From the IMG/VR virus record IMGVR_UViG_3300011242_000002, positions 160,001 to 224,000 of that record: a stretch of DNA of 64,000 bases; one strand, given 5' to 3'. Numbering within the stretch: the first letter of the stretch is position 1; each line of letters begins with the position of its first letter. Positions 15,142 to 33,760 of this stretch are shown in pieces. The notes below the pieces were generated by a model. It searched no databases. It saw only the letters and a program-made list of their open reading frames with translations, and was not told where the DNA came from. The translations under genes and the position numbers were made by a program. Origin of the DNA: a virus. Lineage: Duplodnaviria; Caudoviricetes.

Positions 15142-15325
15142 TAATTCTGAGATGAATGCTCAACGTTGAGCACCCTTAATAGCAGGATGGCGGCGTGTGT
15201 ATTCGCAAAGTCGTTACACCCCACGGTCACCGCATGGACCGTGGTAATGAGAGACTTGGGACGCAGCTGAAAGTATGCTGGTAAATAGCCGTAACCACGA
15301 CCAACCGCGTGGCATCTCAGAATTA
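15142..15325 (+). ncRNA. putative structured ncRNA closed by a 13-bp stem
   Basis: TAATTCTGAGATG/CATCTCAGAATTA; inner stems TGCTCAACGTTGAGCA, AAGTC/GACTT, CCACGGTC/GACCGTGG; intergenic. Confidence 0.6.
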
Positions 15326-16528: not shown

Positions 16529-16828
16529 ATGAACTTATATCTGGTAGAGCGGACCGACACCGTCTGGTATGATGAGTATGTGGGTATGATCGTTGCGGCA
16601 GCGTCTGAAGATGCAGCGCGCATGATTCACCCGTCAGCATACAAACCGCTGGATAAAGCCGATGCGTTGCATTGCATAAAAGAGTCGGCGTGGTGTTTTG
16701 AGAATGATCGCAATCGTCGTAGTACGTATTGGGTGTTTTTGGAACATACATCGACTCTGCGCGTTACCCTAGTGGGAACAACGCACCTGGCTCCCTGCAT
16801 CCTGCTCTTGGATTTTAATGCCGGTTAA
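16529..16828 (+). CDS. phage hypothetical protein
   Basis: GGAGG RBS; MNLYLVERTD..YDEY.G.IVAA.SE..AR..HP pattern common in phages. Confidence 0.75.
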   Translation: MNLYLVERTDTVWYDEYVGMIVAAASEDAARMIHPSAYKPLDKADALHCIKESAWCFENDRNRRSTYWVFLEHTSTLRVTLVGTTHLAPCILLLDFNAG

Positions 16829-16864
16829 CTTAACGCCCGGGTAAGCCCGGGCACCTCTTCATAT

Positions 16865-16954
16865 TTGAAGCCCTGGGTCACTGCGAACTTCAACGTAGTC
16901 ACAAACATTCGCGATAATGGACTGTACGAGCTGCAGCCGTATCCAGGGCTTCAA
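16865..16954 (+). ncRNA. structured element closed by a 12-bp stem
   Basis: TTGAAGCCCTGG/CCAGGGCTTCAA. Confidence 0.5.
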
Positions 16955-16962
16955 TCCCAATC

Positions 16963-17062
16963 GTCCGGATAGTTTAATGAGAACAACGTCCTGGAAAGTG
17001 GTATAACTTACATGCCGCGTAATGGACGAAGGTGGATGAGGTTTGAGTCCTCCCTCCGGACA
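16963..17062 (+). ncRNA. tRNA-like cloverleaf with extended anticodon arm (non-canonical or pseudo-tRNA)
   Basis: Acceptor GTCCGGA/TCCGGAC, T8A9, D-arm GTTT-AATGA-GAAC, CGTCC/GGACG arm with 32-nt insert, T-arm GAGG-TTTGAGT-CCTC; no encoded CCA. Confidence 0.6.
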
Positions 17063-17082
17063 ACCTTTTGCTCTACGTCGTA

Positions 17083-17172
17083 CTGCCTGATGAGTTGCCG
17101 ACGTTAACTGCAACGAAACCTCGAGCAGTCTGGTCCCGCAAGGGAGTTCCAACCGGGCTGCTCTTGTCGCAG
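17083..17172 (+). ncRNA. type I hammerhead ribozyme
   Basis: Stem I CTGC/GCAG, core CTGATGA (17087-93), stem II GTTGC/GCAAC, GAAAC (17115-19), 12-bp stem III extension, GTC triplet 17166-68. Confidence 0.85.
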
Positions 17173-17347
17173 GGTTATCTCATTGACCAGGGTGTCTCGA
17201 GCTAACGCAGCCTACTGACTATTTGAAATTACTACCGGGTTCTTTGGAATAGTCAGCGGGATGCGGTAATTTGACCGGTTACCTGTATCAGCATCGCAGG
17301 GGTGCGATGTACGGTTCATGTTCTTGTGTTGAGTAGATGTAGCGGCT

Positions 17348-17384
17348 AAAACCCCGGGGCTAAACACCTCGGGGTTTTATGCCG
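17348..17384 (+). terminator. terminator ending the ncRNA cluster
   Basis: AAAACCCCGGGG-CTAAACA-CCTCGGGGTTTT-ATGCCG. Confidence 0.8.
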
Positions 17385-17421
17385 GTTAAAAGCCAAATGC
17401 ATAATGCAGTTAATTTCAAAT

Positions 17422-17480: not shown

Positions 17481-17708
17481 ATGTTAATCCATTTTCTGCT
17501 GTACGGTTTTATGTTAAGCATGCTCGGCCTGGTAGGTATCCCATTGTTTGTGATGTACCGTCAAGTACTGGCCAAGCGCTACAACGTCAAACGCATTCAA
17601 CGTCTGTTGGCTGAGTACAGCCACAATGATGAATTACACACTTACGCGAAAGCCGAACTGGCTGACGCCAAGAAACGCCCGTTCTGGAAATGGAACATCC
17701 ACGCCTAA
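17481..17708 (+). CDS. small membrane protein
   Basis: N-terminal hydrophobic helix; AGGAG RBS. Confidence 0.7.
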   Translation: MLIHFLLYGFMLSMLGLVGIPLFVMYRQVLAKRYNVKRIQRLLAEYSHNDELHTYAKAELADAKKRPFWKWNIHA

Positions 17709-31693: not shown

Positions 31694-33760
31694 ATGAAAC
31701 ATCCTAACGACAACCAGCCAACCAACCCTGTTCTGGGCGACGCACTGAAGAATGCTCAGCAGGCACAGCAGCAACAGCAGGCGCAGGCCCAGCCTCAGCA
31801 GCCTGCACAGCCGCAGGTGGCACCACAGGTTCCGCCACAGCCCGCTTTCACCGCGCAGCAGCAGCAGCCGGTCTTCACTGGTCAGCCTGGTGTGAACGCT
31901 CAGGCGCAGCCGCAGGTTAATCCGCAGGACCGTAAATCCCGTATCTTCGGGATGAACGACCGTCGTGAACGTACCTTCTCTTCTCAGAGCTACTCCGAGA
32001 ACTTCAAGATCGCGACCGATGCGATGGAAGAGTTCGCCAAGGGCTACGAAGATAAAGGCTACAAGAAGACCTGGTACATCCTGCCGCTGCAGGACACCAA
32101 CCTGCACTGCGGTTCCCTGATCTATGCGCTGATCATCAGCAACACCACGGTAGCCACCTACACCTACCTGCTGGAAAACACCGGTTCTCAGCTGAAACCA
32201 ATGACCGGCAACGATCCGCAGACCAACGAACGTTACGAGCTGCCGCGCATGACCGGTTCTCAGTACGATGACATCTACTGGGCCGCTGTACAGTCCACCG
32301 TGCGTCGTGCGCTGCGTCTTAGCGACAGCGTGAACATCCTGGAAGCCGGTGCGGGTGTTATCCATTCCGAAATGGATTGGAAAGACACTACTGCTATTGG
32401 CCGCCACCTCAACAACGCCGAAAACGCCGCGATGGCGTATGCTAACCGCCTGTCTGGCTACCAGATTGAACCACCACTGAACCTGGTGACTGAAATCAAC
32501 CCGCTGGTCGACCGTCTGTCCGCCGGCTTCAACTTCAACCCACTGCCGCTGTACACCGCGGATGGTCAGCCACAGCGTAACGACGTAGAAATCAAACTCA
32601 CCGTAAGCTCTGACGGCGACGTGCAGGTTCAGAACTCCGAACCTTTCACCACCGTTAACGCCTACGTGGAACTGGTTTCTGCCGGTAACCAACCGCAGTA
32701 CATCCCAGGTCCGTACGGCCAGATGGTGCAGGCGACCCAGCGCTACTACCCGCAGCTGGCAATCACCAACATCAGCCAGGGGATCTTCGATGCCGAAGGC
32801 GCTGAGTTCCAGCTCCTGGGTCTCTACACTGCTACCCTGCTGATGGAGAACAACAACTGGCAGAACGCCTTTGCTCCGCGCATGGTTAACGGTGTCGACA
32901 TCAACGACATCGGTGCCCTGAACTACGAGCTGGGCCTGGGTCGTGATCCAGCTGACCCGAACGCACGTCCGAAGAAGATCGACACCAAGTCCCATGACTT
33001 CAACATGCATGCCCTGTCGCAGCTGCTGAACACCGCCTGCTTCCCAAGCATGTCGATGGTACTTGACATCGAAGAAACCGGACACCGTAACTGGGTGAAC
33101 TCGATGTTCCTGCAAGCCGGTGGCCTGCCGAACACCAACTACACCCTGCTGTCGGACGACGGTAAGCTGGCGCACGATGCCATCATCGCCGCCGCCAACA
33201 ACCTGACCAACGGGAACTTCTCCAAGTTCTTCACGGATCCTACGCAGCTGATCACGATCCGTGACGGTTCGCGTATTCAGGGTGGCTACTACGTGAGCGA
33301 AGACGGTAAACGTCTGGATATTCGTAACGTCGATCTGCTGGCGGTACTGAACTTCCTCGGCGAATCCGATCCACGTCGCGTAGACGAGTGGAAGATGATC
33401 TGTTCTTCTACTTCCGGCCTGTCCGGTCCAAAACGCATTGCGCTGCGTCAGCAGTTCCTGCAGACCATCCTGGGTGCCTCTTACCAGCAGAAGTGCTACT
33501 TCGAGCGAGTAATGGTCAACCACGTGTTCCTGGAAGCACTGCGTCAGGCCCTGGCCGCCGGTGGCGTGCAGGTTCGTCCGGAAAACATGTCCAGCCAGTA
33601 CAACTCCATGTCCTACGGCACGCCGCTGGCACAGATGTACGGCTTCAACACCAACGTCGGTTCTTCCCTGGTTCAGGGTGGTTTCACGCAGGTGGACAAC
33701 ATGGGCCGTGCGATCAACTTTGGTAACTACCGTACCCCGTTCGGTCACTACCATAACTAA
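31694..33760 (+). CDS. chmA: chimallin, major phage nuclear shell protein
   Basis: 688 aa, strong high-expression codon bias, directly upstream of nvRNAP beta-prime gene; motifs GQPQRND, DIGALNYE, GYY..DG...DIR.VDLLAVLN; G/N/Q/F-rich C-tail. Confidence 0.88.
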   Translation: MKHPNDNQPTNPVLGDALKNAQQAQQQQQAQAQPQQPAQPQVAPQVPPQPAFTAQQQQPVFTGQPGVNAQAQPQVNPQDRKSRIFGMNDRRERTFSSQSYSENFKIATDAMEEFAKGYEDKGYKKTWYILPLQDTNLHCGSLIYALIISNTTVATYTYLLENTGSQLKPMTGNDPQTNERYELPRMTGSQYDDIYWAAVQSTVRRALRLSDSVNILEAGAGVIHSEMDWKDTTAIGRHLNNAENAAMAYANRLSGYQIEPPLNLVTEINPLVDRLSAGFNFNPLPLYTADGQPQRNDVEIKLTVSSDGDVQVQNSEPFTTVNAYVELVSAGNQPQYIPGPYGQMVQATQRYYPQLAITNISQGIFDAEGAEFQLLGLYTATLLMENNNWQNAFAPRMVNGVDINDIGALNYELGLGRDPADPNARPKKIDTKSHDFNMHALSQLLNTACFPSMSMVLDIEETGHRNWVNSMFLQAGGLPNTNYTLLSDDGKLAHDAIIAAANNLTNGNFSKFFTDPTQLITIRDGSRIQGGYYVSEDGKRLDIRNVDLLAVLNFLGESDPRRVDEWKMICSSTSGLSGPKRIALRQQFLQTILGASYQQKCYFERVMVNHVFLEALRQALAAGGVQVRPENMSSQYNSMSYGTPLAQMYGFNTNVGSSLVQGGFTQVDNMGRAINFGNYRTPFGHYHN

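Follow-up and report, generated by a model that had tools for sequence, protein, structure and literature searches.

The DNA analysed here, a window of 64,000 nucleotides (nt), spans bases 160001-224000 of a virus record that is 273,301 bp long and carries direct terminal repeats; coordinates below are positions in this window. Four separately folding RNA modules were found at 16859-17385, and all four are retained, with compensatory base changes, across five related jumbo phages. From 5' to 3' they are a long irregular hairpin (RNA-D), a tRNA look-alike, a type I hammerhead ribozyme and a structured RNA of 217 nt (RNA-C) that ends in the usual terminator of the phage. The most likely interpretation, to which a probability of about 0.6 is assigned, is that the ribozyme would free the 217-nt RNA with a defined 5'-OH end, and that the stretch represents the final part of an island of tRNA and non-coding RNA genes in a chimallin-encoding jumbo phage of the Erwinia/Salmonella type.

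The initial annotation of this DNA had described a putative self-processing RNA cassette in a nucleus-forming phage and had suggested that its synteny be followed in relatives. All pieces of the cassette were found where they had been placed, and they amount to more than chance would give. The premise of a nucleus-forming phage is backed by homology: a homologue of chimallin (the phiKZ nuclear shell protein gp54) lies at 32156-33619 in a 699-aa open frame (E = 3.6e-19, 470 residues aligned at 24% identity). The phage genome further carries a beta-like gene of a multisubunit RNA polymerase. Among public sequences, the studied stretch is closest, with a nucleotide identity of about 76%, to the Erwinia phages pEa_SNUABM_48 and pEa_SNUABM_37 and the Salmonella phage vB_SalM_SA002 (SNUABM_48 and SA002 below for the first and the last). 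Two metagenomic phages of roughly 280 kb (L004/L019 and L005/L016) are farther relatives.

The anatomy, conservation and covariation of each module could be read directly from the sequences, as could the absence of a coding region. The fold of the 571 nt around the cassette gave z = -5.9 against dinucleotide shuffles. The RNA modules showed 70-84% nucleotide identity to the relatives, versus 60-72% in most comparisons for the flanking genes, and they are at least as conserved as the adjoining protein genes. The lack of a credible open reading frame (ORF), asserted in the initial annotation, held on translated comparison: four internal ORFs of 35-97 aa match the relatives as short pieces with broken frames, and the adjacent 99-aa gene matches end to end. 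As the four ORFs are not conserved, a protein-coding reading was rejected.

The hammerhead ribozyme and its predicted cleavage site

A hammerhead core was identified downstream of the tRNA look-alike (Table 1), the only one of this kind in the 273-kb genome. Ten distinct homologues were compared, and the core was intact in all of them: CUGAUGA or CUGACGA, GAAA and the G-C pair closing stem II are present, and the NUH site reads GUC or GUA. In each of stems I, II and III, both strands have changed among the homologues with Watson-Crick pairing kept, stem I being open. In the pseudoknot, which was followed through the same ten sequences, GUCG/CGAC never varies and the fifth pair takes the forms C-G, A-U, U-A and G-C. 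The minimum-energy fold of the ribozyme from relative L001 is directly the three-way junction. The hammerhead had been proposed earlier together with an RNA end at 17168/17169; the full core and the covarying helices uphold the ribozyme, and cleavage at this position is predicted. The cut would fall 106 nt past the end of the tRNA look-alike. Type I hammerheads cleave at their own 3' ends, and the ribozyme would therefore stay on the upstream RNA and set the 5' end of what follows.

A type III arrangement, hinted at by partial matches to the Rfam model Hammerhead_3, was rejected. It needs a 7-nt "stem I" hairpin that is unable to form, and the type I arrangement has covarying stems I and III as well as the pseudoknot.

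Several observations weigh against an active ribozyme that releases a defined RNA in this phage. The Rfam hammerhead models (clan CL00010) gave no match in the window at E <= 10, and none reaches the gathering threshold; the relatives and the compact homologues described below scored 26-30 bits with Hammerhead_3, for a threshold of 48.5. This shortfall is attributed to the type I topology together with the long insert in stem III. Near the core, stem III of the window ribozyme consists of an A-U and a C-G pair (2 bp) followed by a 3x2 pyrimidine internal loop, whereas the relatives have a near-continuous 11-bp helix at the same place. Moreover, the minimum-energy fold of the isolated window ribozyme (z = -1.45) has a competing helix that involves core nucleotides. 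Owing to the weakened stem III and the competing helix, cleavage may be slower than in the relatives. The gap of 12 nt between the look-alike and the ribozyme is peculiar to this phage, the relatives having 57-190 nt or a further RNA module. Lastly, the structures of the look-alike and RNA-C rest on five distinct sequences, all of one phage lineage.

Hammerheads with pseudoknots have been documented for all three types and abound in phage DNA (Perreault et al. 2011, PMC3088659), and the ribozyme is regarded as an added member of this known class. With the type I hammerheads that carry a stem I/loop II pseudoknot (PMC3088659) it shares the catalytic core, the three-helix junction, the NUH site, the open stem I, the base-paired contact of loop II with the strand 5' of stem I and the intergenic location in phages. 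It differs from them in a branched stem III insert of 40-80 nt, in reaching the threshold of no Rfam model and in a near-invariant stem II and loop II (G-UYGC, CCGAC-N-UWAAA-N, GCRA-C). The location is also different, since the hammerheads described here lie in tRNA islands and the earlier ones flank Mu-like phage genes.

The RNAs on either side of the cleavage site

The tRNA-like cloverleaf that had been noted upstream of the ribozyme was borne out by covariation. A five-phage alignment was scored against a cloverleaf specified by the authors, with 500 shuffles and slid partners as controls. It was found that 98.7% of the cells were paired and that 13 of the 30 pairs had changed on both sides; none of the 500 shuffles scored as high, and slid partners were 39-54% paired. 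All five helices of the tRNA cloverleaf are kept. Covariation is seen in the acceptor and anticodon stems and is most marked in the extra distal helix of 7 bp, which is wholly rewritten among the phages (GUGGUAU/AUGCCGC versus ACCCGUA/UACGGGU) with its loop AACUUAC unchanged. A covariance model of the look-alike detected exactly one copy per genome (117-128 bits), and an exact-pattern scan matched only the two known IMG/VR relatives. ARAGORN, run over the window, did not call the look-alike, and the Rfam tRNA model, whose threshold is 29 bits, scored it at 16.7 bits and placed a 28-nt insert in its anticodon loop.

Several features of decoding tRNAs are missing. There is no U33 (A stands in its place) and no G18-G19, the T loop reads UUUGAGU, and a bulge interrupts the 6-bp T stem. 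At the 3' flank the discriminator A is followed by CC in four of the five phages, with a full CCA in SA002, and this phage reads A-ACC. The discriminator A with CC in four phages, together with a weak cross-match (22 bits) of the look-alike covariance model to real tRNA-Leu, may be taken as traces of tRNA ancestry. We conclude, as far as can be judged from sequence, that the look-alike is a selected, non-decoding tRNA derivative. The 7-bp acceptor stem, the discriminator A and the CC in four of five phages make its cutting by tRNA-processing enzymes plausible.

Two other identities of the look-alike were considered and rejected. For a tRNA with a spliceable intron, a by-eye comparison showed that the internal loop fits no bulge-helix-bulge, kink-turn or sarcin-ricin pattern, and the invariance of the insert loop argues for a functional insert that is not removed. 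For a two-piece tmRNA, the tmRNA mode of ARAGORN found nothing, and the 5' end of RNA-C shows no complementarity to the 3' acceptor strands upstream.

Downstream of the predicted cut, the hairpins and the terminator that had been reported were recovered in a consensus fold of five phages with 67 pairs, 16 of them compensatory. The first four nucleotides of RNA-C are the 3' strand of ribozyme stem I, and in the RNA-C consensus nt 4-9 have 17205-17210 as their pairing partner. Covariation links position 4 to the 5' strand of stem I (C-G in the window, U-A in SNUABM_48) and also, in the RNA-C fold, to column 42 (three G-C and two A-U pairs). As it covaries with both partners, the 5' end of RNA-C would switch from stem I to its own fold. 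A kissing pair between the AACUUAC loop of the look-alike and the invariant GGUAAUUUG hairpin of RNA-C (6/7 positions, with a central mismatch and no covariation) is put forward as an idea. An exact 20-nt motif of RNA-C had no match in IMG/VR. When the window and the relatives were searched against Rfam with gathering and E-value thresholds, no family was obtained for RNA-D, the tRNA look-alike or RNA-C.

A GC-rich hairpin followed by TTTATGCCG occurs five times in the window (5387, 11081, 12721, 17376 and 39797). The hairpin is different each time, which indicates that this arrangement is the ordinary terminator of the phage. The motif cTATATTAC-NNNN-GTG, with AT-rich sequence before it, was found in eight copies on the + strand of the genome (17422-17437, 11121-11136, 31601-31616 and others). 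The first of these lies about 40 nt past the cassette terminator, and one copy stands just upstream of the chimallin homologue. The motif is probably a promoter class of this phage. The gene that follows RNA-C differs among the relatives that keep RNA-C, and RNA-C is therefore not the leader of one particular gene.

At the other end of the cassette, the stem closed by 12 bp was present as had been noted. RNA-D has a minimum free energy of -37 kcal/mol (z = -5.0), and its consensus fold from three phages has 31 pairs, four of which are compensatory, with strongly conserved internal loops. In the relatives a protein gene separates RNA-D from the tRNA look-alike; it is absent in this phage. Ahead of RNA-D, the sequence from the stop codon of the 99-aa gene through a GC-rich hairpin is almost invariant in a three-phage alignment, with two substitutions within the hairpin. 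This hairpin may serve as a weak terminator or as a signal for processing in front of the cassette.

From this arrangement we infer the following course of transcription, self-cleavage in vivo, refolding and host-enzyme processing. A precursor would be transcribed on the + strand and end at the standard phage terminator. The hammerhead would fold during synthesis, stabilised by the pseudoknot between loop II and the 5' flank. The cut after C17168 would yield an upstream piece composed of the hairpin, the tRNA look-alike and the ribozyme, with a 2',3'-cyclic phosphate end, and a downstream piece, the discrete 217-nt RNA, with a 5'-OH. The 4-bp stem I would dissociate after the cut, and the 5' end of RNA-C would re-pair with 17205-17210, thereby closing its own 5' domain. 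Such refolding would block re-ligation and make the cut effectively irreversible. The look-alike, which would stem from a tRNA gene and no longer decode, would probably be excised by RNase P and 3'-end enzymes and may act as a stable RNA through its invariant AACUUAC loop. Regarding the polycistronic RNA cut into pieces that the initial annotation had envisaged, the string of conserved + strand RNAs with a complete, covarying hammerhead stands, and the cleavage itself is a prediction.

Table 1. Positions of the RNA features in the window, in 5' to 3' order
Feature	Position	Strand	Details
Structured RNA, ~185 nt	15142-15325		closing stem 13 bp; directly after tRNA-Asn(GUU) in SNUABM_48; no Rfam match
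Structured RNA	16166 to ~16510		5' half common to all five phages; no Rfam match above noise
GC-rich hairpin GCCCGGG-UAAG-CCCGGGC	16835-16852	+	read from sequence; just 3' of the stop codon of the 99-aa gene
RNA-D, long irregular hairpin	16865-16954	+	12-bp closing stem, 16865-16876 with 16943-16954; internal loops conserved
tRNA look-alike	16963-17062	+	cloverleaf with 32-nt extended anticodon arm; five-phage covariation
Acceptor stem, 7 bp	16963-16969 with 17055-17061	+	discriminator A at 17062
D arm	16972-16984	+	5-nt loop AAUGA, without GG (G18, G19)
Anticodon stem	16987-16991 with 17024-17028	+	followed by internal loop
Extra distal helix, 7 bp	16998-17004 with 17012-17018	+	capped by invariant 7-nt loop AACUUAC (17005-17011)
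T arm	17034-17054	+	6 bp with 1-2-nt bulge, loop UUUGAGU
Pseudoknot 5' strand ACGUCG	17075-17080	+	exact 6-bp complement of loop II CGACGU (17099-17104)
Type I hammerhead	17083-17172	+	core, site and helix covariation across 10 homologues
Stem I, CUGC / GCAG	17083-17086 with 17169-17172	+	
Core CUGAUGA	17087-17093	+	
Stem II, GUUGC / GCAAC	17094-17098 with 17110-17114	+	
Pseudoknot 3' strand CGACGU	17099-17104	+	in loop II
GAAA	17115-17118	+	
Branched stem III	17118-17167	+	
Predicted cleavage site, GUC/G	between 17168 and 17169	+	C17 is 17168
RNA-C, 217 nt in all	17169-17385	+	structured RNA ending in the usual terminator of the phage
RNA-C body	17169-17341	+	consensus fold, five phages
RNA-C 5' domain/P1	17169-17208	+	
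RNA-C long hairpin	17211-17260	+	
RNA-C short hairpin	17265-17283	+	invariant loop UGACC
RNA-C short hairpin	17290-17311	+	invariant loop AGGGGU
RNA-C linker	17312-17341	+	single-stranded, partly conserved
Terminator	17342-17385	+	fold; 17-bp hairpin, then UUUUAUGCCG

The RNA island and the same hammerhead elsewhere

Each intergenic gap of the island holds a conserved structured RNA, the studied stretch being the island's end. The two structured RNAs that the initial annotation had placed upstream of the cassette proved to be conserved in the relatives, where the second directly follows tRNA-Tyr(GUA). The tRNA-Asn and tRNA-Tyr genes of the relatives' island are both cleanly deleted here, and the structured RNAs all stay. 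ARAGORN found no tRNA gene in the whole 273-kb genome; in the nearest relatives, this island has genes for tRNA-Asn and tRNA-Tyr. No paralogy was found among the RNA modules of the island, and no known function was found for the proteins encoded next to the cassette.

In three relatives an extra module of about 150 nt stands between the tRNA look-alike and the hammerhead (L001 3994-4140, L004 6077-6225 and L005 6071-6200). It has a D-arm-like hairpin (GCUGAGUCGACGCAGC) and a T arm, and in L005 its ACCA end lies 4 nt before the ribozyme pseudoknot. This module was called by neither ARAGORN nor Rfam, and it is absent from the window. The 99-aa gene at 16529-16828 shows 93% nucleotide identity to SA002 versus 62-64% to the other relatives, a jump that is not seen in the adjacent RNAs and that points to mosaic exchange.

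When a pattern combining the core, stem II and loop II was scanned for exact matches, every relative was recovered. The scan also returned compact forms (44-52 nt) from viral or metagenomic contigs that are unrelated and much smaller, mostly in tRNA regions, with stem II, loop II and the pseudoknot alike. In contigs L018 and L025 the hammerhead stands 0-2 nt after the CCA of tRNA-Leu(UAA), a placement that fits the severing of tRNA-type RNAs from what follows. In L005 it is found 4 nt after an ACCA-ended tRNA-like module, and in L026 it lies 280 nt upstream of tRNA-Pro. Judging by this distribution, the hammerhead subtype is a movable device of phage tRNA regions and is not peculiar to nucleus-forming phages. 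Its presence in unrelated small contigs argues for a general device of tRNA islands with no adaptation to the nucleus, and the link between self-cleavage and the nuclear shell that had been drawn in the initial annotation is thus not supported.

The full hammerhead pattern had no match in 185,579 prokaryote genomes, and an exact scan with a short hammerhead pattern gave seven matches, which were read as chance. In the literature searched, neither an association of hammerheads with tRNAs in phages nor the TATATTAC motif was found. As a side observation, the compact hammerhead behind tRNA-Leu(UAA)-CCA (L025 772-1739; also in L017, L018 and L021) precedes a leader of about 260 nt and then a gene assigned to Amidoligase_2 (PF12224, E = 8e-7).

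Known systems and possible functions

The nearest described analogy is provided by the hepatitis delta virus (HDV)-like theta ribozymes, which lie behind gut-phage tRNAs and have been proposed to free the phage from host RNases in the processing of multi-RNA transcripts (Kienbeck et al. 2024, PMC10879173). In both cases a small self-cleaving ribozyme stands directly behind phage tRNA-type genes. The folds are different, and the theta ribozyme cuts at its own 5' end, trimming the 3' trailer of the tRNA, whereas the hammerhead would cut at its own 3' end, remain on the upstream RNA and set the 5' end of the downstream RNA. Rfam E-value scans of the window gave no match to the HDV family (nested double pseudoknot).

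The island RNAs also resemble the stable RNAs C and D of the T4 tRNA cluster, which are small, structured RNAs of unknown function that arise from tRNA precursors. In contrast to the cassette described here, RNAs C and D are matured by host RNases without a ribozyme. A further likeness is to YrlA, the bacterial and phage Y RNA-like tRNA mimic (Rfam RF02553), which is equally a phage-carried, non-decoding mimic of tRNA. YrlA is permuted, has its ends in the long stem and works with Ro60/Rsr as its partner, whereas the look-alike has its ends at the acceptor stem, and the phage genome contained no RtcB, Ro60/TROVE or Pfam RNA_ligase-family (PF09414) gene. The window gave no match to the YrlA model. 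In two relatives, sub-threshold YrlA matches were observed a few kb upstream (L001 776-879, 41.9 bits; L002 411-528, 32.3 bits; threshold 69).

In order of how well they survive, the other explanations begin with anti-defence decoys. The look-alike and/or RNA-C would here neutralise RNA-targeting defences (anticodon nucleases, type III/VI CRISPR, toxins) that the phage nucleus cannot block. The relatives' island carries tRNA-Asn(GUU) and tRNA-Tyr(GUA), and phage tRNAs of this kind are known to stand in for host tRNAs that defence nucleases have cut. In addition, a tRNA shape that is unable to decode is under strong selection, and with a chimallin homologue encoded, cytoplasmic RNA would be an exposed flank. 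However, the invariant AACUUAC lacks U33, and an informal comparison with several E. coli anticodon loops, which does not amount to a search, showed no match. The associated proteins offer no clue, no ToxI-like or CRISPR-like repeats are apparent, and the hammerhead subtype is not tied to nucleus-forming phages. Decoys are hence considered unlikely.

A trans-acting set matured by the ribozyme is quite unlikely as well. The tRNA mimic and the 217-nt 5'-OH RNA would work in the cytoplasm against RNA-directed defences or on host tRNA or translation enzymes. If the RNAs act in trans, their being kept while real tRNAs were discarded suggests that they do something that tRNAs do not. Were this true, nucleus-forming phages would possess an RNA-based counter-defence where the shell gives no protection.

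A translation-related tRNA variant, in which the cloverleaf is still CCA-ended and charged and acts on the ribosome, a synthetase or a modification enzyme, for example as a regulator or competitor, is very unlikely. The 7-bp acceptor stem, the discriminator A with CC or CCA and the weak match to tRNA-Leu would suit it, but the anticodon arm is longer by about 12 base-pair equivalents, and, by the geometry of tRNA, an RNA so lengthened cannot set its anticodon and acceptor end in the ribosome together. The divergent D loop, T loop and T stem, and the 3' flank of this phage, which is A-ACC and not A-CCA, speak against it too.

The same low standing is given to a decaying tRNA island, with the cloverleaf as a pseudogene, the ribozyme as a relic that no longer cleaves here and the hairpins as mere stabilisers or terminators. 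This would agree with the loss of all canonical tRNAs in this phage, the weakening of hammerhead stem III beside the core and the look-alike's 3' flank, which is no longer A-CC. Nevertheless, compensatory changes occur in every helix, the loops are invariant, and conservation is equal to or above that of the coding neighbours; pseudogenes would not keep their pairs through double changes.

Least probable of all is a cis-acting leader or attenuator, in which RNA-C and the terminator exert riboswitch-like control over the downstream genes, with trimming by the ribozyme: the layout of structured domain, linker, terminator and then an ORF with a ribosome-binding site at 17481 would allow it, but the downstream gene is not conserved among the relatives that keep RNA-C, a conserved promoter-like motif lies between terminator and ORF, and no Rfam riboswitch was matched.

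The preferred reading remains that of a hammerhead which would set the 5' end of a discrete RNA at the end of a tRNA island. To call the cassette the best candidate for an undescribed system in this DNA, as the initial annotation did, was an overstatement with regard to the ribozyme, whose class is known; the tRNA look-alike and the accompanying RNAs do appear undescribed. The look-alike, RNA-C and the other island RNAs have no Rfam family and no description in the literature searched, and they are confined to a small phage lineage.

What most hammerheads of bacteria and phages do biologically has yet to be established (PMC3088659, PMC10085705). For the present one a concrete job is suggested, namely the separation of a tRNA-shaped RNA from a 217-nt RNA. 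The recurrence of the subtype in phage tRNA islands would extend ribozyme-assisted island processing from the HDV-like theta ribozymes to hammerheads. Moreover, the island of a chimallin-encoding phage provides several unclassified structured RNAs that are amenable to study in Erwinia or Salmonella. If any of the island RNAs proves to be anti-defence or translation-modulating, it would represent a new class of phage effector.

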